From NCBI GenBank assembly GCA_050015075.1, contig JBEKCB010000001.1, positions 1-64,000 on the forward strand: DNA of 64,000 nucleotides. The letters are read 5' to 3'. The stretch comes from Candidatus Brocadiia bacterium (lineage in GTDB: Bacteria > Planctomycetota > Brocadiia > CAIUPP01). The notes beneath the pieces were generated by a model. It had not been told where the DNA came from, did no database searches, and was given only the letters and a program-made list of their open reading frames with translations. The position numbers were made by a program, and so were the translations under genes. This document shows positions 7,741-61,348 of this stretch, one piece after another (the first letter of the stretch is position 1; each line of letters begins with the position of its first letter).

Positions 7741-9369
7741 TCACCTGGGCGGCTCGCTTCCCGGCGCCGCGAGGCCGCGCCGCTGGAGGAGCGTGCCTTC
7801 GAGCCGGTAGAGTTCCACCAGCGCCTTGCGGTATCCGGCGACGGCCTGGACGTACGCGATCTGGCTGGAGAGCAGGTCGCGCTGCGCCTCGGCGACGAGC
7901 AGGCTCGTGGACTTGCCGATGCGGAACTTCTCCGCCTCGACGCGCACCTTTTCCTCCTGCAGCGTTCGGCTGGCCAAGCTGGCGACCACCTGCGCGCGGG
8001 TGCGGAGGATCTCGATGTACGCGGTGCGCACGTCCAGCTCGACGAGCTGCGCGAGATTGCCGACGGCCTGATCGGCCTGGCCGCGCGCGAGCCGGGCGGC
8101 GGCGTCGGCCGCCTTCGCGGCGCGGTTCGCCGGCGGATACTCGAAGTTCACGCCGACGAGCGCGTCGTAGTCGTTTGCGCTCAGGTTGCTGACGGAACCC
8201 GGGAAGGAGCTGGAGTAGCCCGTCCGGCCGAGCGTGATGAACAGGTTGAGCTGCGGCAGCATGCCGTTCTTCGTCTTGACGATCTGCAACTCGTCGCGCT
8301 CGACCAGCAGCCGCGCCTGGTTCAGGTCCGGCCGCATCCGCAGCGCCGCCTGGATGTGATCGGCCAAGTTGTCCGTCGGCTCCTCCTTCGCGGAGGGCTG
8401 GTCGAGCAGCACCAGGTCGCGCTCGAACGTGTTCCCGCTCGGGCTGAGCAGCCGCAGCAACAGCAGGCGCGCCGCGTCGAACGCGCTCCGCGCGTTGATC
8501 AGGTCCTCCTGTCGCAGCGCCACCTCGGCCTCGGCGGCTACCTTCTCCGTCGCCGCCACGTTGCCGAGCTGGATCCGGTCGAGCGTCTCCCGGAGCTGGT
8601 CGTTTGCCAGGCCAAGCGACTTCTCCGTGATCTGGATCTGCTGCTGGGCGAGCGCGCAGTCCCAGTACGCCTCCTCTGTCTGCGCGACGAGCGATTCCGC
8701 GAAGCCGCGCAGCTCGTACTCGGAGGAACGCGTGTCCAGGCGCGCCTGGCGCAGGCTGGCCAGGTTCACGTCGAGCCCGTAGCCGCGCAGCAGCGACTGC
8801 GTCGCCGTGAGGCTGATGTTCGTGGCGTAGTTGCCCGGCAGCGAGGGGTAGTTCGCCGCCGGCACCGTGGGCCACTTCATGACGGTCTCGCCGGCGCTCA
8901 GGTTCAGCAGCGTGCCGGTCGGCAGGAACTCCGACAGGCCGAGCAGCCCCAGCTCCGTCTGCGCGGGCGGCGGCGAGTCCACCTGGTTGTACGCGCGCTG
9001 GAGGGAGAACGTGCCGGTCAGGTCCGGATCGAACGCCGCGAGTTGCTGCTGCTCGGCGGTGCGCGTGATCGGCACGTTGTAGCGGTCCACGATGAACGCG
9101 CGGTTGTTTTGCAGCGCGATCAAAATGGCATCCGGCACGGCCACGCGCAAAGGTCCGGCGGCCTCCGCCGTCTCGGGCGGCGGCGCGGGCAGCTTCGATT
9201 CCGCCGCGGCGGCTTGCTGCGCCTCGGCCGGACCGGCCGGGCCGACGTAATCCGGGAAGCGCACCATCTCCGGGACATTGCACGCGGCCAGTGCGCCGAG
9301 CGCCGCGGCGGCGGCGATGACGAGCATGCGACGGGCGACATCTCTTCCGGTCAACATTCCAGGTCCCAT
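7741..9369 (-). CDS. TolC-family outer membrane efflux lipoprotein
   Basis: Lipobox LAAC and two OEP-like repeats (AFDPDL...TQSLLRG; LPQLNL...AQRDL). Start codon uncertain. Confidence 0.85.
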   Translation of the reverse strand: MGPGMLTGRDVARRMLVIAAAAALGALAACNVPEMVRFPDYVGPAGPAEAQQAAAAESKLPAPPPETAEAAGPLRVAVPDAILIALQNNRAFIVDRYNVPITRTAEQQQLAAFDPDLTGTFSLQRAYNQVDSPPPAQTELGLLGLSEFLPTGTLLNLSAGETVMKWPTVPAANYPSLPGNYATNISLTATQSLLRGYGLDVNLASLRQARLDTRSSEYELRGFAESLVAQTEEAYWDCALAQQQIQITEKSLGLANDQLRETLDRIQLGNVAATEKVAAEAEVALRQEDLINARSAFDAARLLLLRLLSPSGNTFERDLVLLDQPSAKEEPTDNLADHIQAALRMRPDLNQARLLVERDELQIVKTKNGMLPQLNLFITLGRTGYSSSFPGSVSNLSANDYDALVGVNFEYPPANRAAKAADAAARLARGQADQAVGNLAQLVELDVRTAYIEILRTRAQVVASLASRTLQEEKVRVEAEKFRIGKSTSLLVAEAQRDLLSSQIAYVQAVAGYRKALVELYRLEGTLLQRRGLAAPGSEPPR

Positions 9370-9403
9370 TTCAATCGCATAAACGAAACGCCATCCGTAC
9401 GGC

Positions 9404-10714
9404 TCACTCGGCCTCAGCCGAAATTCCCATCCGGACGAACGTCGGATGGATCAGGCGCAGAAACCGCGGCAGCCAGATCCAGAAGACGACCGCAGCGGCG
9501 AGGCAGCCGAGGCCGTTGAGGGACACGGCCGTCGGCGCGCCGAACCGGGCCGCCAGCGCTCCGACGAGCAGGCTGCCGAACGGCCCCAGCCCGGAGAACG
9601 AAATCGTGTAAAAGCTCATCACGCGCCCGCGCTTGTCGTCGTCCACCAGCGTCTGGATCAGCGTGTTGCACGAGACCATCATCGCCATGCCGCCGATCCC
9701 GGCGACGACCAGCAGCCCGGCCGACAACCACAGGTGAGTCGAGCGCGAGAAGCACAGCAACGCCGCGCCGAAGAGCGCCACCGCCGCGGTGAGAATCTGT
9801 CCCAGCCCGCGCACGCTCCGGCGCGAGGCCATGAAGACCGCCGTGATGATCGCGCCGACGCCGTTGGCCGACATCAGGTAGCCGAGCGTCGTCGAATCGC
9901 CTTTGAGGATTTTCTTCGCGAACACGGGCATCAGCACTCCGTACGGCCAGCCCACCACGCTCAGCGTCGCCAGGAGCAGCAGCAGCGACAGGATCGGCTT
10001 GTGGCTCGCGACGTACTGCGCGCCTTCCTTGAGGCTGTGCAGCACGCGCCGGCTCGCGGCCTCGGCGTTCTTCGGCTGCACCCGCATCGCCAGCAGCGCC
10101 GCGATCACGGCGAGAAAGCTGACCGCGTTGAGCAGGAAACAGGTCCCCTCGCCCACGAGCTTGATCACGATGCCGGCCACCGACGGTCCGATCAGCCGCG
10201 CGCCGTTGAACATGAAGGAGTTCAGCGCGATGGCGTTCGGCAGGTCCGCGCGGTCCTCCAGCATCTCGACGACGAACGACTGGCGGGTCGGGATGTCGAA
10301 TCCCATCACCAGCCCCAGCAGCGCGCTCAAGGCGATGATGTGCCACACCTGGATCACCGGCGTTCCGTCGGCGTGCTTCACCAGCGTCAGGATCGCCAGG
10401 ATCAGCGCCTGGACCAGCGCCACGCTCTGCGTGACGACCAGCAGCGTGCGCTTATTCACCCGGTCGGCCAGCACGCCGGCGAACGGCGCCGCCGCGAAGG
10501 TCAGGATCTGGCTGCTGAAACCGACCACTCCGAGGAGCAGCTCCGACCCGGTGATCTTGTACACCAGCCAGCCCAGGGCCAGGTTCTGCATCCACGTCCC
10601 GATCAGCGAGATGCCCTGGCCCATGAAGAAGAGGCGGTAATTCCGATGGCCGAAGGAGCGGATCAGGCCGAATTGCCGATTGCCGGCGGCCGGCGGCGGA
10701 GTGGAGGACGTCAT
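9404..10714 (-). CDS. MFS transporter (DHA3/H+ antiporter-like)
   Basis: HRNYRLFFMGQGISLIGTWMQ N-terminus, GVLADRVNKR motif A, NAIALNS...ARLIGP and RGRVMS. Start 10714 or 10741. Confidence 0.9.
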   Translation of the reverse strand: MTSSTPPPAAGNRQFGLIRSFGHRNYRLFFMGQGISLIGTWMQNLALGWLVYKITGSELLLGVVGFSSQILTFAAAPFAGVLADRVNKRTLLVVTQSVALVQALILAILTLVKHADGTPVIQVWHIIALSALLGLVMGFDIPTRQSFVVEMLEDRADLPNAIALNSFMFNGARLIGPSVAGIVIKLVGEGTCFLLNAVSFLAVIAALLAMRVQPKNAEAASRRVLHSLKEGAQYVASHKPILSLLLLLATLSVVGWPYGVLMPVFAKKILKGDSTTLGYLMSANGVGAIITAVFMASRRSVRGLGQILTAAVALFGAALLCFSRSTHLWLSAGLLVVAGIGGMAMMVSCNTLIQTLVDDDKRGRVMSFYTISFSGLGPFGSLLVGALAARFGAPTAVSLNGLGCLAAAVVFWIWLPRFLRLIHPTFVRMGISAEAE

Positions 10715-53644: not shown

Positions 53645-54466
53645 CTATTCTGAATTCCGAACGTTCGGCTCGAACGACAGCTTGCGGCAGATTTTCTCCG
53701 CGCCCTTGAGGCCGGGCCTTATGCGGAAGGCGATCTCGAGATGGCGGCGGGCGCCTTCGGTGTCGCCGATGGCCAGGTGGCATTCGGCGACTTTTTTGTG
53801 GAGGAACGCTTTCCGCTGAGGCGTCAGTTCGAGGCCCAGCGCGCGCAGGTAGTATTGCGCCGCCGCGGCCGGCCCGCTGGTCGGCGCGGCGTCGCGGCAG
53901 CAGACGTGCAGGATCCGGTCGCGCAGCTCGTGCGCGAAGTACGAGAACCGGGTCCGCGCCGCCTCGGAATGGTAGAGATCCTCGTACAGCGCCAGCGCGC
54001 GCTCGAAATCGGAGCGCCGCTGGTACTCCTCGGCGAGGAGGAACTTGCAGTCCACCCAGTCGCGCAGCTCCAGGTGATGGCTCAGGTCGTAGCCGCTGTT
54101 GGCGCGGACGAGGCGCTCGTACAGCTCCATCGCCTGCGCGACGTTGCCGCCGAGCAGGTCGTAGAGGACGCGCTCGGCCTGCGCGCGGGGATGCTCGCCT
54201 TCGGGGCGCTGCTTGGGGCGGATGGAGGACTTGCGGCGCTCGCGCTCATGGAGGACGGCGTGACGGCGGTCGTACGCCTCGCGGAGGCCGGCGTGCGAGA
54301 GCACGCGGTGCGCCTCGATCAGGGACTTGATCTGCGCGGTGGCCCATTGCGTGCGGCCGGCGTTGCGGTCCGGGTGATACTTCTTCGCCAGCGCCCGGAA
54401 CGCCCGCTTGATCTCCTGCCGGGAAGCGTTCGACGGCACGCCAAGGGTTTTGTAGTGGTCGAGCAT
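53645..54466 (-). CDS. DnaJ-domain protein with a TPR-like C-terminus
   Basis: DHYKTLGV...KKYHPD J-domain followed by helical repeats. Confidence 0.88.
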   Translation of the reverse strand: MLDHYKTLGVPSNASRQEIKRAFRALAKKYHPDRNAGRTQWATAQIKSLIEAHRVLSHAGLREAYDRRHAVLHERERRKSSIRPKQRPEGEHPRAQAERVLYDLLGGNVAQAMELYERLVRANSGYDLSHHLELRDWVDCKFLLAEEYQRRSDFERALALYEDLYHSEAARTRFSYFAHELRDRILHVCCRDAAPTSGPAAAAQYYLRALGLELTPQRKAFLHKKVAECHLAIGDTEGARRHLEIAFRIRPGLKGAEKICRKLSFEPNVRNSE

Positions 54467-54618: not shown

Positions 54619-55245
54619 CTACTTCGCCGCAGGCGCCGCGGCCGGCGGTTGCGCGGCGGGCGGCTCGGCGGCGGGTTTCCGCTCGCCGGCGATGCCGCCG
54701 GAGAAGACGAAGGCCATGACGTCGGGCGTCGGCTTATCCACCGGCCGCACGCATTCCTTCGGGACGACGACCAGGTTGCCGCCGAAGTTGAATGCCGCCG
54801 GGATGTAAACGGCCACCTGGTCCTTCAGGCCCCAGCTCTCCATCGTCGCGCAGGTGACGAAGCCGACGAACTTGAGGTCGCTCTGCGGGATGGCGCTGAC
54901 GAGCACCGGCCGGTTGAACCGCTTCTTCTTGCCCACGAATGAGCCGAGCAGGTCTTTAAGCGACGAGTGGAACAGCTTGATCAGCGGGAACCGGTCGAAT
55001 TGCTGGTCGGCCAACTGCATCAGCGGGTGCGTGAGCAAGTTGGACGAGAGGAACCCGATGATCGTGAGCAGCGGTACGCCCACAATGAAAGCGATGACGA
55101 ACCCCACGCCGATCGTTTGCAGGTGGAACAGGCTCCGGACCGGCTCGTCAATCATGTTGAAGAGCCAGTAGAGGACCAGCATCGTGATCCACGCCGGCGC
55201 CGCAAACAGCAGTCCCTGAAAGAAATAGCGCGCTAACCGTCTCAT
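54619..55245 (-). CDS. DUF502 membrane protein
   Basis: YFFQGL, two TM segments, PLIKLFHSSLKD, VAVYIP and FVFSGG. Confidence 0.88.
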   Translation of the reverse strand: MRRLARYFFQGLLFAAPAWITMLVLYWLFNMIDEPVRSLFHLQTIGVGFVIAFIVGVPLLTIIGFLSSNLLTHPLMQLADQQFDRFPLIKLFHSSLKDLLGSFVGKKKRFNRPVLVSAIPQSDLKFVGFVTCATMESWGLKDQVAVYIPAAFNFGGNLVVVPKECVRPVDKPTPDVMAFVFSGGIAGERKPAAEPPAAQPPAAAPAAK

Positions 55246-55772: not shown

Positions 55773-55930
55773 AAGCGGCCGCCTGCGATGACGGCTTTGG
55801 GCAGCCTTCCGGAACGCCGCCTTCAAGCGCCGGGCTTGCAAAACTTCGTCGCAAGGTTACAATGATGCTGCGCTCCGAAGGCCGGCGCGGACAGCGAGAC
55901 GCGCACCTTCGAGTTCAAGGAGGGGAAATC

Positions 55931-56203
55931 ATGGGCGGGCACGTGCAATACATCGGCTGGACGGTGGTGATCGCGCTGGTGGGCGGCGTGGTGGGCATTG
56001 CGCTGGTGCTGGTTTCCTCGGCGTTTCTGCCGTGGTTCATCGGCCGCATGACGCCGGCGATGGACGAGGAGAAGGAGATCGCGCGCGGCAACGTCGCGGC
56101 GGCGGAGTACTTCGGCCGGGTGGTCGCCGCGAGCATTCTGGGCATGAGCGTGGTGGTGGCGGCGGCGATCCTCGGCGCCATCATCGCGGTGCTTTCCTCG
56201 TAA
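55931..56203 (+). CDS. Small two-TM membrane protein (DUF350-like)
   Basis: AGGAGG RBS and the MTPAMDEEKEIARGNVAAA motif between two TM helices. Ends 19 bp before the triple-Hint gene. Confidence 0.75.
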   Translation: MGGHVQYIGWTVVIALVGGVVGIALVLVSSAFLPWFIGRMTPAMDEEKEIARGNVAAAEYFGRVVAASILGMSVVVAAAILGAIIAVLSS

Positions 56204-56222: not shown

Positions 56223-58856
56223 ATGACGGACTCCGGAACCGGAAAGAAGTTCGGGCGCGGCGTCATCGCGCTGATGCTGGCGCTCCTGGCGGCCGGCGCC
56301 GCGTTCGCGCGCGGCGGCGGCGGCTGCCTCGAAGAGGGCACGGCGGTCCTGACGCCGTCCGGCCCGGTCGCCGTCGAGCGCCTGGCGCCGGGCGACGAGG
56401 TCCTTTCCGTCTGCGGCGGCCGGTTGATCCGGGCGACGGTCGCGGCGCGCACGCAGGTTCAGCCGGAAGAATACATTGTCCTTCGCGTAGCCGGGCGAGT
56501 GCTGCGCGTGACGGCCGAGCATCCGCTGGCGGTTGCGCCCGGCACGTTCCGCGAGGCGTCTTATCTGCGCGCCGGCGACGCGCTGCTCCTGCGCGAGGGC
56601 GACTCCAGCCGCCGGACGCCGATCGAGGCGGTCGCGCGCGTCGAAGCCGGGCGGCCTGCCTACAATCTCCTGGTCACTCCCGGCGGCACTTATCTGGCCG
56701 ACGGCCTGATCGTCCATAACAAGGGCTGCTTCCTGCCGGATACGCCGATCCTCCGCGCCGACGGGAGCGAGACCGCCATCGCGGACGTGCGGCCGGGCGA
56801 GAAACTGCTGGCGTTCACTCCCGCGGGCGAGATCGTGACCGCCACGGTCGCCGCCGTGCTGGCGATCGAGGTGGACGAATATGCCGTAGTCACTACGGAC
56901 CGCGTCACGGTGCACGTCACGGTCGAACATCCGTTCTACGTCGGCGACGGGACGTTCAAGACGCTCGAGGCGCTGAAGGTCGGCGACTCGATTTTCGCCT
57001 GGGACGGCCTGGGCCTGAGCGCGCAGCCGATTCGCAGCATCGAGCGCGTCCAGAGTCGCACGCGCGTTTACAACCTTCAGACCGACGCTCCGCACACGTA
57101 CTTCGCCTCCGGCATCGCCGTGCACAACAAGGGCGGCGGTGGCGGCTGTTTTCCTGCGGGCACGCAGATCAGCACGCCGGGCGGCAGCGCGGCGATCGAG
57201 ACGCTTCGGCCGGGCGATATCGTCCTCTCCGTGGGGCCGGATCGGCGGACGGCGGATTCGCAGGTCGAGGCGGTCCAGACCGCCTCCACGCCGATCACGG
57301 TCGTCTCCACGACGGCGGGCGAGTTGAAGACCACCGCCGAACATCCGCTGATGACGGCCGACGGCTCTTTCCGGCCGGCCGGCGAGTTGCAGCCCGGCGA
57401 CCGGATCCGCGTTTTCCGCGCCGGGCGCGTCGAGTCCGCCTCGGTCATCGAATGCCGCTCGACCGGCGAGGCGTGCCCGGTGTTCAACCTGCGCGTCGGC
57501 GACCCGCACACGTTCATCGCCGACGGATTCGTGGTCCACAACAAAGGCGGCGGCGGTGGAGGCTTCGGCGGAGGCGGCGGGTTCCACGGCGGCGGGGACC
57601 TGGACGCGACGGGCGCCCTGTTCCTCTTCGGCTTTATCGCCCTCTTCATTTTGGTGTCTGTCGTAAGCCAGAAACTGAAGGCGCGCGACGAGAACCTGGA
57701 CTTTTCGTACAGCCCTTCCGCAAGTGCGAACAAGGCGGACAAGACCCGAAAGCTGCTGGAGTTCATCGCGAAGAGCGATCCCAAGTTCGCGCCGGACCTC
57801 CTGGCGGGCACGGCCCGGTCCACGTTCGTGCTGCTCCAGAAGTGCTGGCAGGCGCGCGATTATGGGCCGATGAAGCCGCTCTTGATGCCCGATCTGTACG
57901 CCGAGCACCTGGGGCAGATTCAGGGCATGATCCGCGACCACGAGATCAACGTCATCGAGGGACTGCTCGTCGACGGGGTGGACCTGGTGAACGTGCGCTA
58001 CCCGAACGACCCCAACGGGCGCGAGTTCACTGCGCTCATCAGCGCCACCGCGCAGGACTACTACATTGACGACCGGACGCACAGCTTCGTGCGCGGCGAC
58101 GAGGAGGCGGAGCCGTTCCAGGAGTTCTGGACGTTCCACCTCGTGGACGGGCATTGGCTGCTGCGCGAGATCGAGCAGACGAAGGAGTCCGACGCGCTCA
58201 AGACGGACAATTTCTTCGAGCCGTTCACCGATCACGGTGTCAACCAGGTCTATGCGGAAACGGCCGGCCGCGAAGGGCCGGTCGGGCCGTCGGTCGAGGC
58301 CGGCGAGGAATTGAAGGTCACGCGCGTCGAGCGGCTGCTGAACTATCTCGTCGAGAACGACAAGCTCTGGGACCGGCAGGCGATGTCGGAGCGGGCGCGC
58401 AAGGTCTTCCTCGAGGTCTGTCTCGCGCGCGAGGAAGGCGATCCGGAGCACGTCCCGTCGGCGGACCTGTTCCCCGAGATCGCCGCGCACCTGAAGGAGG
58501 AAATCCGCAGCCGCCAGGCGGAGGGCGCTTCCATCGAGTTCCGCAATCTCTGCGTGCGCAAGGTGGACCTGGTCCTGGTCCGCAATTACAGCGACAAGAC
58601 GCAGGACGAATTCACCACGCGGATCAGCGCGCACGCGCAACAAGTCGTGCGCCGCAGCGGCCAGGTCGTGAGCGAGCAGCCGTACGTCACGCCGTTCGAG
58701 CAATACTGGACGTTCGGCCGGCTGGACGATCAATGGAAGCTCAAGGAAGTGGAGCCGCCCGCGAAGGGCCTCGAGATGGTCGGACAGGAGAATGTGGACG
58801 AAGGCGTCCCCGCCGCGCAGCTCGAGTGGTACTACCAGCACCCGCGCGCGACTTAA
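56223..58856 (+). CDS. Exported/membrane protein with three tandem Hint (intein-like) domains, a TM helix and two Tim44-like domains
   Basis: Signal peptide ending AFA, three C...TxEHP...(Y/F)NL...VHN units, Gly-rich linkers and a TM helix. Two Tim44-like repeats follow (FTALISATAQDY...FQEFWTF..WLLREIE; FTTRISAHAQ...FEQYWTF..WKLKEVE). Confidence 0.9.
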   Translation: MTDSGTGKKFGRGVIALMLALLAAGAAFARGGGGCLEEGTAVLTPSGPVAVERLAPGDEVLSVCGGRLIRATVAARTQVQPEEYIVLRVAGRVLRVTAEHPLAVAPGTFREASYLRAGDALLLREGDSSRRTPIEAVARVEAGRPAYNLLVTPGGTYLADGLIVHNKGCFLPDTPILRADGSETAIADVRPGEKLLAFTPAGEIVTATVAAVLAIEVDEYAVVTTDRVTVHVTVEHPFYVGDGTFKTLEALKVGDSIFAWDGLGLSAQPIRSIERVQSRTRVYNLQTDAPHTYFASGIAVHNKGGGGGCFPAGTQISTPGGSAAIETLRPGDIVLSVGPDRRTADSQVEAVQTASTPITVVSTTAGELKTTAEHPLMTADGSFRPAGELQPGDRIRVFRAGRVESASVIECRSTGEACPVFNLRVGDPHTFIADGFVVHNKGGGGGGFGGGGGFHGGGDLDATGALFLFGFIALFILVSVVSQKLKARDENLDFSYSPSASANKADKTRKLLEFIAKSDPKFAPDLLAGTARSTFVLLQKCWQARDYGPMKPLLMPDLYAEHLGQIQGMIRDHEINVIEGLLVDGVDLVNVRYPNDPNGREFTALISATAQDYYIDDRTHSFVRGDEEAEPFQEFWTFHLVDGHWLLREIEQTKESDALKTDNFFEPFTDHGVNQVYAETAGREGPVGPSVEAGEELKVTRVERLLNYLVENDKLWDRQAMSERARKVFLEVCLAREEGDPEHVPSADLFPEIAAHLKEEIRSRQAEGASIEFRNLCVRKVDLVLVRNYSDKTQDEFTTRISAHAQQVVRRSGQVVSEQPYVTPFEQYWTFGRLDDQWKLKEVEPPAKGLEMVGQENVDEGVPAAQLEWYYQHPRAT
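56325..56720 (+). other. Hint/BIL domain 1 (aa 35-166)
   Basis: CLEEGTAV...VTAEHPL...AYNLLV...LIVHN. Confidence 0.9.
56727..57128 (+). other. Hint/BIL domain 2 (aa 169-302)
   Basis: CFLPDTPI...VTVEHPF...VYNLQT...IAVHN. Confidence 0.9.
57147..57542 (+). other. Hint/BIL domain 3 (aa 309-440)
   Basis: CFPAGTQI...TTAEHPL...VFNLRV...FVVHN. Confidence 0.9.
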
Positions 58857-58869
58857 CGGCCGTTATTGA

Positions 58870-59380
58870 ACCACCAAGGCGCCAAGGGGCAAAGAGACAA
58901 CGTCTTCCACCACGGAATACACGGAGCACACCGAATGACTTTCCCAAACGGCTTCAGTGTCTTCCGTGTACTCCGTGGTTGCAATATCAGTTGGCGTTCA
59001 AGACACCAAGGCGCATAGAGATAACGGCTTCCACCACGGAATACACGGAGCACACGGAATGACTTTCCTAAACAGCTTCAGTGTCTTCCGTGTACTCCGT
59101 GGTTGCAATATCAGTTGGCGTTCAAGACACCAAGGCGCATAGAGATAACGGCTTCCACCACGGAATACACGGAGCACACGGAATGACTTTCCTAAACAGC
59201 TTCAGTGTCTTCCGTGTATTCCGTGGTTGCAATATCAGTTGGCGTTCAAGACACCAAGGCGCATAGAGATAACGGCTTCCACCACGGAATACGCGGAGCA
59301 CACGGAATGACTTTCCTAAACAGCTTCAGTGTCTTCCGTGTATTCCGTGGTTGCAATATCAGTTGGCGCTCTTGGCGTCT
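58870..59380 (+). repeat. Four tandem copies (period 124 bp) of the CCACGGAATACACGG nested inverted-repeat element
   Basis: Units start at ~58893, 59017, 59141 and 59265. Copies 2-4 are nearly identical. Confidence 0.93.
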
Positions 59381-59418
59381 TGCAGGTGAATAAAAAACCA
59401 AATTTCGAAAGAGGTCCC

Positions 59419-60426
59419 ATGCCGATGACATCCCGCGAAATCATCAAGCGCCATCTTGAATTCGCCGGCCCCGACCGGATCGGCCTCAACTTCACCGACG
59501 GCCGGGCCGACGATTTCTGCGAGGTCTGGCTCGGTCCGTCTCCGGTCTGGCGCGAGCGCCGATGGACGGAGGGCCGGCAGGAGTTCTACACCGATGAGTG
59601 GGGCAACACCTGGTTCCGCATGGCGGGCATGGGCCGCGGCGGCGAAATTTATCAGCCCGCGCTGACGGAGTGGGACCAACTGAAGGACTATCGCCTGCCG
59701 GACATGGCCGCGCCGGAACGGTACTCCACGGCGCGCCGGAAATTCGCGGCCGAGAAGGAGCGCTATCGGCTCGGCGGGCTGCCCGGGTTCCCGTTCGCGA
59801 TCTGCCGCTACCTGCGGAAGATGGAGAACTATTTCAAGGACCTTCTGCTGGAGCGCGAGCGCGTGGACGAGCTGCACGACCGCGTGGCGGCGCTGCTCGA
59901 GAACGTGATCGCGCAATACGCGCAGGCCGGGGCGGACGGCGTTATCTTCTGCGAGGACTGGGGCACACAGGAGCGGCTGCTGGTCAGCCCTGCGATGTGG
60001 CGCGAGATCTTCAAGCCGCTGTTCCGGCGCCTGTGCGCCGCCGCCCACGCGCGCGGCCTGCACGTGCTCATGCACTCGTGCGGTAACGTGCGCGACATCC
60101 TCGGCGACCTGGCCGAGGCCGGCGTGAACTGCATGCAGTTCGACCAGCCGGCGCTCTATGGGCTCGAACCGCTCGCGGCGCGGCTCCAGGCCGTGAAGCT
60201 CTGCCTCTTCTCGCCGGTGGACATCCAGCAGGTGCTGCCGAGCGGCGACCGGGCGCGGATCGTCGCCGAGGCGCGGCGCATGGCGGAGCTTTTCAACGGC
60301 CGGCGCGGCGGGTTCATCGCCAGGAATTACGCCGACCTCAAGGGCATCGGCGTCCAGCCGGAATGGGACGGCTGGGCGTACGAGACGTTCCTCGAATGCG
60401 CGGGCGGGAAACTCGCGAAGGCTTGA
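59419..60426 (+). CDS. Uroporphyrinogen decarboxylase-fold protein (MtaA/CmuA-like)
   Basis: TDEWG, EDWGTQ, MWREIFKP, HSCG and VDIQQVLP. Confidence 0.85.
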   Translation: MPMTSREIIKRHLEFAGPDRIGLNFTDGRADDFCEVWLGPSPVWRERRWTEGRQEFYTDEWGNTWFRMAGMGRGGEIYQPALTEWDQLKDYRLPDMAAPERYSTARRKFAAEKERYRLGGLPGFPFAICRYLRKMENYFKDLLLERERVDELHDRVAALLENVIAQYAQAGADGVIFCEDWGTQERLLVSPAMWREIFKPLFRRLCAAAHARGLHVLMHSCGNVRDILGDLAEAGVNCMQFDQPALYGLEPLAARLQAVKLCLFSPVDIQQVLPSGDRARIVAEARRMAELFNGRRGGFIARNYADLKGIGVQPEWDGWAYETFLECAGGKLAKA

Positions 60427-60442: not shown

Positions 60443-61348
60443 TCACGCTTTCGGGATAAGGATCGGCGCGAGGCACGCGGGACAACGGCCCTTTCTGCCG
60501 GCGAATTCGCGTTTTGCCTTGAGGAGCTTGCCGCAGGTGCAGAGGATCGGGATCGTGTCCTCCCGCGGGATCGGCATGGGATTGCCCGGTGGCGCCGGAT
60601 AGCGGACCGCCGTGCTGTCCGCGGTCGCGGCCTCCAGAGCGCTCCGCGCCACGCGGTCGCGCCACGCCGTCCTCAGCCCGAAGATATCCAGCAGCGTCCG
60701 CTCGGTGTCGTCCATCGAAACCCGCCGCAGTTGCATCAGCACGATCGCCAGGACAAACCCGGCCGCGAATCCGCCGATGTGCGCCCAGTACGCCACGCCG
60801 CCCAGTCCCAGCGCGGCGCCGAGAATGTCGAAGGCCAGCCAGAGCAGCATGATCCAGTAGCTGCTCACCTCGAACCATCCGTACCGGATGTAGAAGAAAA
60901 GCCAGGCGAAGTAAAAGCAGCTGATCTCGTTGGTCGGGAACCACACCAGGCACATGGCCATGACGCCGCTGATGGCGCCGCTCGCGCCGATGGCCGGATG
61001 GTCGCTGAAGAGCACGTGCGCCATGCCCGCCAGGATGCCCAGCCCGACGAAGAGGAACGGGTATGCGGCGTTCCCCACCTTCTCGCAGACGGCGTTGCCG
61101 AAGACCCACAGGAAAACCATGTTGCCGGCGAGGTGGAAGATGCCGCCGTGGAGAAAGATGTGGCCGACCAGGCCGAGGGGATTCCATCCGTTCAGCACGA
61201 ACGACCCGATGGCCGGAGTTCCCGCGAGGCCGCCCGCGCCGAACTGCTCGAGGAGGTAACAGACGACCAGCAGCGCGAGGATGACATAGTTGGCGATAGG
61301 CCGCCGGTAAAGCGGAACGTCCACGTGGTAGGGCACGAGCAGGAACAT
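60443..61348 (-). CDS. Rhomboid intramembrane serine protease with a C-terminal zinc ribbon
   Basis: HGGIFHLAGNM, GASG, AHIGG and tail CTCGK...CPAC. Confidence 0.9.
   Translation of the reverse strand: MFLLVPYHVDVPLYRRPIANYVILALLVVCYLLEQFGAGGLAGTPAIGSFVLNGWNPLGLVGHIFLHGGIFHLAGNMVFLWVFGNAVCEKVGNAAYPFLFVGLGILAGMAHVLFSDHPAIGASGAISGVMAMCLVWFPTNEISCFYFAWLFFYIRYGWFEVSSYWIMLLWLAFDILGAALGLGGVAYWAHIGGFAAGFVLAIVLMQLRRVSMDDTERTLLDIFGLRTAWRDRVARSALEAATADSTAVRYPAPPGNPMPIPREDTIPILCTCGKLLKAKREFAGRKGRCPACLAPILIPKA

Follow-up and report, generated by a model that had tools for sequence, protein, structure and literature searches.

Tandem Hint domains in a Gly / Lys-Gly frame within the leader of a bacterial Tim44-like membrane protein family: candidates for self-excision

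The window, by which we mean the whole 64,000-nucleotide stretch of DNA analysed here (positions 1 to 64,000 of contig JBEKCB010000001.1, assembly GCA_050015075.1, from a Candidatus Brocadiia bacterium), encodes at 56,223 to 58,856 a predicted exported membrane protein in which three complete Hint domains lie in tandem within a glycine-rich leader, ahead of a transmembrane (TM) helix and two Tim44-like domains. As judged from sequence searches, this Hint-Tim44 protein belongs to one widespread bacterial family of more than 1000 protein clusters, whose members carry from zero to six Hints. Each Hint in the family is framed by glycine on its N-terminal side, with few exceptions, and by lysine and glycine on its C-terminal side, and a gene for a small DUF350-like membrane protein usually lies just upstream. 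We propose the Hints as candidates for self-excision in the manner of type-A bacterial intein-like (BIL) domains, with the lysine as a possible acyl acceptor. An earlier note on the same DNA, made by reading the sequence, had laid the protein out as a signal peptide, RGGGG, three Hints joined by KG and KGGGGG, a TM helix and two Tim44 domains, and this layout was borne out to the residue (Table 1).

Identity and fold of the Hint domains

The three Hints are recognized by PT-HINT (PF07591), which is the best-scoring Pfam model (E-value 7.5e-28; 97.9 bits against a cut-off of 27.7; three stretches). Four further Hint models score over their cut-offs – Hint (PF01079; 59.8 bits, cut-off 29.7), Intein_splicing (PF14890; 58.3, 35.8), Hint_2 (PF13403; 57.8, 28.4) and Vint (PF14623; 38.6, 27) – as do both of the NCBIfam/TIGR models for the N-terminal and C-terminal splicing regions of inteins. 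Cys1, the block-B T..H pair and the terminal His-Asn, which the earlier note had reported for every Hint, are found in three of three (Table 1), and a length of 132-134 amino acids leaves no room for a homing endonuclease, in keeping with the absence of one in that account.

An AlphaFold2 model of residues 1-468, based on an alignment of 44 sequences, has a mean predicted local distance difference test (pLDDT) score of 85.8 and comprises three confident all-beta domains, mostly with pLDDT above 90, joined by disordered linkers and followed by a disordered Gly tail. A Foldseek comparison with the PDB places Tetrahymena BUBL1 BIL2 at the top (6y75 and 6tmm; E-values 3.4e-9 to 3.3e-8, TM-scores 0.76-0.81, 22% identity), followed by the Clostridium thermocellum BIL (2lwy; E-value 2.3e-8, TM-score 0.83) and, further down, by the DnaB, RecA and gp41 mini-inteins and then Hedgehog (1at0; E-value 4.4e-6); the Foldseek probability is 1.00 for the BILs, the mini-inteins and Hedgehog 1at0. 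The likeness of the modelled domains to solved BIL and mini-intein structures (E-values 3e-9 to 1e-7) is far beyond chance. A PDB sequence search, too, gives the BIL 2lwy as its best match (E-value 1.5e-11; runner-up 8e-6). Profile models and predicted fold agree with the call of these domains as Hints in the earlier note.

A search of the ESM Atlas with residues 30-460, from which clusters with Tim44 were excluded, returned only generic Hint clusters, with scores of at most 0.85 and many of them from phages. Phage (Uroviricota) clusters among them, of about 600-730 amino acids, combine several Hint-type domains with an AXH module (TM-scores of 0.42-0.50 to the Hint array) and may be another kind of multi-Hint protein.

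Junction residues and Hint types

The main junction statistics come from 140 complete Hints in proteins found through the Tim44 part alone, a set preferred because the 79 genome loci described below had themselves been found by their junction pattern. All 140 Hints end in His-Asn, and all are followed by Lys at position +1 and Gly at +2; the first residue is Cys in 139 and Ser in one (P0141), and Gly occupies the position before it (-1) in 137. Among the 213 Hints of the genome loci, His-Asn, Lys+1 and Gly+2 are present in 213, Gly-1 is present in 211, and the block-B Thr and His are invariant. Conservation of the Gly-Cys and Asn-Lys-Gly junctions among homologues, for which the earlier note had proposed a check, is therefore strict in both sets. 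One beta-type Hint each in P0141 and L086 opens with Ser in place of Cys (HNKG followed by SFLP...), indicating that an oxyester version of the same junction exists.

As a control, PT-HINT domains were sought in 151 Planctomycetota genomes, of which 32 gave a match, and junctions were scored in those Hints of the fetched loci that lie outside the Hint-Tim44 family. The +1 residue of the control Planctomycetota Hints is K in four, N in four, G in three and I, E, A or V in one each (n=15), with KG in none of the 15, and Gly-1 is present in 7/24. Since the control lacks the KG frame, the Gly / Lys-Gly frame is a property of the Hint-Tim44 family and not of Hints generally.

Three types of Hint can be told apart by their opening residues and their place in the array: alpha (C-L/V/I-x-x-G-T), beta (CFLPDT-like) and gamma (CFPAGT-like), the order in which they stand in the window. 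The order alpha-beta-gamma is found in 37 of the 69 proteins with complete N-termini and alpha-beta in 12, and variants among the remainder include alpha-beta-gamma-gamma, alpha-beta-alpha-beta and beta-gamma. A tree of the Hints, built without the first eight alignment columns because the type labels would otherwise be circular, contains near-pure groups for gamma (57/58; support 0.96), beta (81/85; 0.67) and alpha (62/64; 0.32). All 62 alpha-to-beta linkers consist of KG and nothing else, and the beta-to-gamma linker is K with one to five Gly in 49 of 50 and KGGS in the other. A basic residue followed by oligo-Gly recurs at the signal-peptidase site, where A/G-R-G-G-G-G follows the signal peptide in 63 of the 69 complete homologues, and behind every Hint.

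Mean pairwise identity among orthologues in a 14-sequence alignment is 0.34-0.44 for the Hints versus 0.34-0.45 for the Tim44 domains. By this measure Hints and Tim44 domains are equally conserved. The catalytic residues, invariant or nearly so in the 140- and 213-Hint sets, are under strict selection. The three window Hints are 32-39% identical to each other (alpha versus beta, 33%), and this divergence, together with the retention of the three types across phyla, leads us to reject a recent tandem duplication. The view taken in the earlier note, that the Hints are clearly diverged and do not stem from a recent duplication, can be restated more broadly: they are three old paralogue types whose order is the same from phylum to phylum.

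Signal peptide, membrane anchor and Tim44-like domains

The N-terminus of the protein has a hydrophobic peak at residues 10-33 (Kyte-Doolittle) and an AlphaFold2 helix at residues 10-24, and the signal peptide is presumably cleaved at AFA before Arg30. Lipidation at Cys35 was considered and rejected: Cys35 is preceded by G-G-G where a lipobox would have Leu, Val or Ile at -3, and the homologues that lack Hints have no Cys there. With acidic residues before the TM helix and K/K/R behind it, the C-terminal part is predicted to lie in the cytoplasm; residues 441-458, between the last Hint and the helix, are predicted to form the periplasmic N-terminal tail of the mature protein.

The C-terminal part matches Pfam Tim44 (PF04280; E-value 1.2e-22; 81.1 bits, cut-off 29.6) over two stretches. 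The AlphaFold2 model of the C-terminal 437 amino acids (pLDDT 82.8) has a long TM helix and, behind it, two modules of helices plus sheet, whose best fold match is the C-terminal domain of human Tim44 (2cw9; E-value 3.1e-6), with the mitoribosomal protein mL45 and yeast Tim44 next. A PDB sequence search with the C-terminal half gave only chance-level matches to single-chain variable fragments (scFv; E-value >0.2), so that the likeness to solved Tim44 structures is visible by fold search only. The NCBIfam Tim44/TimA adaptor model (NF033779) reaches 53.2 bits, below its cut-off of 80. Taking the Pfam score over cut-off together with the modelled fold of the C-terminal domain, we assign the protein to the Tim44 family. 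It shares Tim44 matches and the fold of its C-terminal half with the bacterial Tim44-like proteins (COG4395, PF04280), mitochondrial Tim44 and mL45, but differs from these in its doubled domain, its single N-terminal TM anchor, its Gly-rich exported leader with Hints and the DUF350-like gene beside it. The PT-HINT and Tim44 matches in the window's genome are confined to the three Hints and two Tim44 domains of this gene.

Distribution of the Hint-Tim44 family

When 5.8 billion proteins were searched by word seeding, 8000 candidates were scored and 1038 of them matched at an E-value of 0.001 or below. The best 120 listed of these 1038 all carry PT-HINT and Tim44 in precomputed Pfam assignments, are 41-61% identical to the window protein and contain two to six HN-KG junctions. 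An exhaustive HMMER search with the C-terminal 437 amino acids only identified 1302 representatives at E-values of 0.001 or below, 142 of them at 1e-30 or below; the best 150 of the 1302 have no Hint in 81 cases (most of these being fragments), one Hint in 21, two in 20, three in 19, four in 8 and five in 1.

One genome per species was also scanned by the junction pattern; 157 stretches matched, of which 153 encode a relative, and 79 loci were kept. According to their record titles, these are from Verrucomicrobiota (23), delta-proteobacteria or Desulfobacterota (16), Planctomycetota (14), Lentisphaerota (7), Nitrospirota (7), unclassified bacteria (2), and Kiritimatiellia, Acidobacteria, Auribacterota, Riflebacteria and a metagenome-assembled genome labelled 'Pseudomonadota' (1 each). 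The 79 also include a cultured organism, Legionella massiliensis LegA (L031), and four contigs binned as Micrarchaeota (L074, L085, L086 and L089), which could reflect gene transfer or mis-binning. Only 3 of 41 related genomes, counting that of the window, have the gene, and the distribution is thus patchy.

The architecture had seemed unfamiliar to the author of the earlier note, who knew of no characterised protein that has it. It is not singular, being common to a large family with zero to six Hints; a targeted literature search found no paper on a Hint-Tim44, intein-Tim44 or DUF350-Tim44 protein, although the original BIL papers, which were beyond the reach of that search, might list members.

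Hint number as a labile trait

Hint number ranges from zero to six in the family, and in a rough FastTree phylogeny built from 84 sequences of the Tim44 part its values are scattered. Two sequences that are otherwise almost identical carry five Hints (P0152; alpha-beta-gamma-beta-beta) and two (P0150; alpha-beta), a difference that reflects either expansion or contraction of the array at the strain level or collapse of the repeats in assembly. The orthologue in a genome of the same genus as the window's, with 88% identity, has beta and gamma only, and in its DNA alpha and the adjoining KG are gone exactly, in frame, between two GGCTGC microhomologies. This loss is not an assembly collapse, because alpha and beta are too different (33% identity, as given above).

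Full-length homologues with no Hints (P0215, P0247, P0203 and P0199) have a signal peptide, A-R-G-G..., a Gly/Ser/Tyr-rich stretch and a TM helix. The tail behind the last Hint of the Hint-bearing proteins starts with K-G-G in 34 of the 34 loci listed and continues as a similar low-complexity stretch. The earlier note had supposed that ordinary Tim44 proteins with a Gly leader exist and had called for Hints to be counted in each homologue; the Hint-less proteins, with their signal peptide and ARGGGG... leader, correspond to the former, and the count varies even between near-identical genes.

The same-genus genome also has an extra double-Tim44 paralogue of 405 amino acids (8798-10015, minus strand; 77% identical; P0122), with a TTG start and without a signal peptide, leader or Hints. 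It is located between DUF502 and DUF350-like genes, has no counterpart in the window, and may be a truncated duplicate or a pseudogene.

Comparison with known Hint systems

The window Hints are similar to the type-A BIL of C. thermocellum (2lwy): both are mini Hints of about 135 amino acids with Cys1, block-B T..H and terminal His-Asn, without an endonuclease and without Cys, Ser or Thr at +1, and both occupy a region of an exported bacterial protein that is not conserved. Every sequence-level feature of type-A BILs that was examined is present in them. The earlier note had drawn this comparison from the Lys at +1, and it extends to the Cys or Ser at position 1, the T..H pair, the His-Asn end, the lack of a +1 nucleophile and of an endonuclease, and the variable exported region. 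The Hint-Tim44 arrays differ, however, in having two to six tandem copies, three paralogue types in a fixed order and an essentially invariant Gly-1/Lys+1-Gly+2 frame, and in residing in the Gly-rich leader of a single conserved family of host membrane proteins.

BUBL1 of Tetrahymena thermophila, the source of BIL2 (6y75, 6tmm), likewise has BILs that alternate with short exteins and an N-extein that ends in Gly. BUBL proteins are eukaryotic and cytoplasmic with ubiquitin-like exteins, whereas here the exteins are Lys/Gly peptides of two to six residues in a bacterial leader predicted to be periplasmic, with Lys exactly at +1. There is no ubiquitin-like Pfam match, and a BUBL-type array is rejected.

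Class 1 mini-inteins (Ssp and Npu DnaB, Mtu RecA) share the fold and blocks A, B and G. The Hints described here are in an exported host, in tandem copies and not in a conserved site of a housekeeping enzyme. Assignment as class 1 inteins is rejected on the Lys in place of Cys, Ser or Thr at +1, the location in a Gly-rich leader, and the variation from Hint-less homologues to six copies.

The name of the best Pfam model would suggest a polymorphic toxin. PT-HINT domains do occur in exported bacterial proteins, and they are thought to release the C-terminal part, but the junction residues of ordinary PT-HINT domains vary; what follows the Hints here is a TM helix and two Tim44 domains with no toxin domain, and the next gene is URO-D-like, so the toxin reading is rejected. 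A Hedgehog (Hog-type) Hint is rejected because no adduct-recognition region comes after the Hints: each terminates in HN, with KG and the next unit directly behind it.

Proposed processing and alternative explanations

In inteins and BIL domains, Cys1 and the block-B His convert the bond to the preceding residue into a thioester, while cyclisation of the terminal Asn breaks the bond that follows it. We propose that the Hint-Tim44 protein would be exported by Sec as a single-pass inner-membrane protein, with its two Tim44/NTF2-like modules in the cytoplasm and its Gly-rich leader and Hints in the periplasm. The Hints would fold after export; each would shift its Gly(-1)-Cys1 bond to a thioester and cut its own C-terminal Asn-Lys bond by Asn cyclisation, and Lys+1 would take the upstream glycyl acyl group through either its freed alpha-amine or its epsilon-amine. 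What remained after loss of the Hints would be a short tail of Arg, Lys and Gly (RGGGG-KG-KGGGGG-KGGGGGG...), the equivalent of a Hint-less homologue's leader, and the mature protein would then work together with the co-inherited DUF350-like membrane protein. There are published precedents for such chemistry. Type-A BILs, with His-Asn and no +1 nucleophile, are described as proceeding through a thioester and Asn cyclisation to ligation by amine attack on the thioester, with cleavage dominant (PMC4031507, section 8), and their features and mostly-cleaving behaviour are also given in the introduction and section 2.2 of PMC7664689; Tetrahymena BIL2 forms an isopeptide with a Lys epsilon-amine and passes its N-extein to several substrates (PMC8616854, section 2.4).

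By analogy with these domains, self-excision of some kind is likely. For ligation through Lys+1 the prospects are nearly even, leaning if anything to the doubtful side, and we put the whole proposal, namely periplasmic self-excision of the type-A BIL kind with Lys+1 as the acyl acceptor, at about an even chance. We infer the periplasmic location, the cleavage of the signal peptide, every chemical step and the role of Lys+1. The case for the lysine is that it is invariant even at the internal junctions, where it never becomes the N-terminus of the membrane protein, which argues for a role in the Hint's own reaction; moreover, it stands at the position of the class 1 nucleophile, where Gly would be the default, and is thus probably a participant in the reaction, the simplest role being that of acyl acceptor. 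A more far-reaching version, which seems quite unlikely, has Lys+1 as a branch nucleophile: splicing through the epsilon-amine would create Gly-(epsilon)Lys isopeptides in the ATP-free periplasm, or else the glycyl thioesters would be handed to envelope amines. If the former were true, the array would build an isopeptide-kinked Lys/Gly tail with several free alpha-amines; the latter would be a bacterial counterpart of the 'ubiquitin-dispensing' BIL of Tetrahymena; and under either the alpha-beta-gamma order would mirror an ordered, staged reaction.

A number of points weigh against the proposal. The chemistry of all members is argued by analogy. Cleaved products exceed spliced ones in the published work on BILs (PMC4031507, section 8; PMC7664689, introduction), and by that comparison cleavage alone has a precedent that is at least as good. 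Instead of being an acceptor, the invariant Lys could aid Asn cyclisation or recognition, and K is the joint commonest +1 residue in the unrelated control Hints (4/15). The oxidising periplasm of aerobes could hamper a free Cys1 thiol, and cleavage of the signal peptide is read from the sequence. The supports for the alpha and beta clades (0.32 and 0.67) are weak, and some copy-number differences in metagenomes, such as that between P0152 and P0150 though not that in the same-genus genome, may be collapsed repeats.

The main rival is cleavage without ligation, in which the N-thioester is hydrolysed and the Asn-Lys bond cut, so that free Hints and the peptides RGGGG, KG and KGGGGG would be released into the periplasm and a Lys-polyGly N-terminus left behind, mimicking the Arg-polyGly N-terminus of Hint-less homologues. 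The mainly cleaved products reported in the BIL reviews (the same sections of PMC4031507 and PMC7664689) are as expected from it. Since tails behind the last Hint begin with K-G-G in every locus listed and the mature leader of the Hint-less homologues begins with R-G-G-G, cleavage alone would recreate an equivalent N-terminus, and a mature product that does not depend on Hint number fits the lability of that number. What it does not account for is the conservation of Lys+1 and Gly+2 at internal junctions, where the KG found in all 62 alpha-to-beta linkers would be a discarded dipeptide, nor does it explain the near-invariant Gly-1, and we regard it as somewhat unlikely. Transfer in trans would direct the same glycyl thioesters to amines of envelope proteins, peptidoglycan or lipid head groups, or have the Lys-polyGly N-terminus attack the thioesters of a neighbour, making the array a one-shot, ATP-independent periplasmic ligase like the ubiquitin-dispensing BIL2. 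The N-extein R-G-G-G-G does have a ubiquitin-like glycyl C-terminus, and thioester chemistry is among the few routes to amide bonds in a periplasm free of ATP. In BIL2, moreover, which is the top structural neighbour, the N-extein becomes attached to Lys on several substrates (PMC8616854, section 2.4). The transferred groups would, however, be only two to six residues long unless the signal peptide stayed attached, the neighbourhoods of the 79 loci hold no conserved candidate for a target or adaptor besides the DUF350-like protein, and an acceptor Lys is available in cis at +1 of every Hint; such transfer is improbable.

A different question is that of purpose, on which the Hints may be passengers: intein-like insertions in a tolerant leader, multiplied by unequal recombination without benefit to the host, with the catalytic and junction residues preserved solely through the damage that a Hint left in place would do to the host protein. 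This explanation is compatible with either cleavage or ligation chemistry. The free variation from zero to six Hints, shifting between near-identical genes and between genomes of one genus, speaks for passengers, as do the Hint-less homologues and a predicted mature product that is much alike whatever the Hint number. In favour of function are the constant order and the degree of conservation: at least eight phyla retain the three diverged types in the same order, alpha and beta always joined by KG, and although precise loss is evidently easy, most members have two to four Hints that are as conserved as the Tim44 domains. Nor is there a homing endonuclease or other means of spread, and that the Hints are mere passengers we hold to be rather doubtful. 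Inactive Hint-fold domains exist in other proteins, and the Hints could in principle be beta-domains without catalytic activity that form a structural or binding ectodomain in the periplasm, with no processing at all. Retention of the position-1 nucleophile, the T..H pair of block B and the final His-Asn throughout the 140- and 213-Hint sets is nevertheless hard to explain without catalysis, and absence of processing is most improbable.

Relation to published mechanisms

The earlier note had set out three outcomes: splicing by aminolysis that rebuilds a Gly-rich leader, isopeptide branching or transfer of the activated peptides, and staged cleavage that unmasks an N-terminal Lys-polyGly. The fold, the junctions, the diverged types and the leader on which these were founded have all stood. 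The novelty is reduced, as amine-based ligation by type-A BILs (PMC4031507, section 8) and isopeptide formation by a BIL (PMC8616854, section 2.4) are already in print. The features that are undescribed in the literature searched are the tandem array of three types, the Gly / Lys-Gly frame, and the leader of a double-Tim44 host with a DUF350-like gene as the place in which the Hints occur.

BIL domains were first described in 2003, and their use to the host has been an open question ever since. The Hint-Tim44 family provides a test case for it, with short exteins, three types, an invariant junction and natural alleles with zero to six Hints as controls. If Lys+1 is indeed the acceptor, a lysine-based route would join the known mechanisms of protein splicing, and protein engineering would gain a ligation module that needs no junction Cys, Ser or Thr and is usable outside the cytoplasm. 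A conserved two-gene unit, composed of the DUF350-like protein and the double-Tim44 membrane protein, is also defined across many phyla.

The DUF350-like gene and the neighbourhood

A same-strand homologue of about 89 amino acids is located upstream of the Hint-Tim44 gene in 67 of the 79 loci, with a median gap of 25 nt, and at least six of the 12 loci without this open reading frame (ORF) begin at a contig end. In the window the listed ORF starts at 55862, and the homologues favour a start at 55931 (Table 1). The window protein scores 23.3 bits against PF03994 (cut-off 26) in a half-length match to model positions 8-67 of 133; 34 of 35 aligned orthologues match the model at an E-value of 0.01 or below (best 2.9e-7), with half of it covered. 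A genome-wide DUF350 search of the window's genome gave no match at an E-value of 0.001 or below. The orthologues have a conserved loop, TPxxDExKEIxRGNxAVAxYFGR, and the protein is probably a functional partner of the mature Hint-Tim44 protein. No other conserved neighbour stood out across the 79 loci, the next largest cluster being present in 15. The DnaJ-TPR, DUF502, URO-D-like and rhomboid genes that flank the pair are common to the same-genus genome and are not conserved across the 79 loci.

Table 1. Coordinates in the window of the Hint-Tim44 gene, its parts and the neighbouring genes (aa, amino acids or residue numbers).
Feature	Position	Strand	Description and basis
DnaJ-TPR gene	53645-54466	-	
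DUF502 gene	54619-55245	-	
DUF350-like gene	55931-56203	+	89-90 aa, two TM helices; half-length DUF350-like domain; 20 bases upstream of the Hint-Tim44 gene
Hint-Tim44 gene, whole ORF	56223-58856	+	predicted exported multi-Hint Tim44-like membrane protein, 877 aa; stop-free frame, Pfam, homologues
Signal-peptide-like N-terminus	56223-56309	+	aa 1-29, ending AAFA; basic n-region, hydrophobic core, AFA before Arg30
RGGGG	56310-56324	+	aa 30-34, N-extein of first Hint; direct reading, homologues
Hint alpha	56325-56720	+	aa 35-166, 132 aa, CLEEGT...VHN; Cys35, T97..H100, H165-N166; Pfam, reading, AlphaFold2
KG linker	56721-56726	+	aa 167-168, Lys+1 of alpha and Gly-1 of beta; homologues
Hint beta	56727-57128	+	aa 169-302, 134 aa, CFLPDT...VHN; Cys169, T233..H236, H301-N302; Pfam, reading
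KGGGGG linker	57129-57146	+	aa 303-308; homologues
Hint gamma	57147-57542	+	aa 309-440, 132 aa, CFPAGT...VHN; Cys309, T371..H374, H439-N440; Pfam, reading, 2lwy PDB match
Lys and Gly-rich tail	57543-57596	+	aa 441-458, 18 aa, KGGGGGGFGGGGGFHGGG; disordered in both AlphaFold2 models
Transmembrane helix	57606-57677	+	about aa 462-485; Kyte-Doolittle peak 2.59; AlphaFold2 helix, residues 22-48 of the C-terminal model
Tim44-like domain 1	57759-58178	+	aa 513-652; Pfam, AlphaFold2, fold match to human Tim44
Tim44-like domain 2	58314-58745	+	aa 698-841; Pfam, NCBIfam, AlphaFold2
URO-D-like gene	59329-60426	+	next gene downstream
Rhomboid protease gene	60443-61348	-	

Directly downstream of the Hint-Tim44 gene, at 58875-59368, are four tandem units of 124 bp that match at 97%. 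The unit is dispersed in the genome, with at least 51 matches at an E-value of 0.001 or below, about 35 of them near full-length with 84-100% identity, spread over many contigs and in some places arrayed; a 30-base core has eight matches in the window, at about 16.8, 46.0, 48.6 and 59 kb. A single unit folds as a long imperfect hairpin (z -3.8), and the repeat looks like an intergenic element of the repetitive extragenic palindromic (REP) or miniature inverted-repeat transposable element (MITE) kind.

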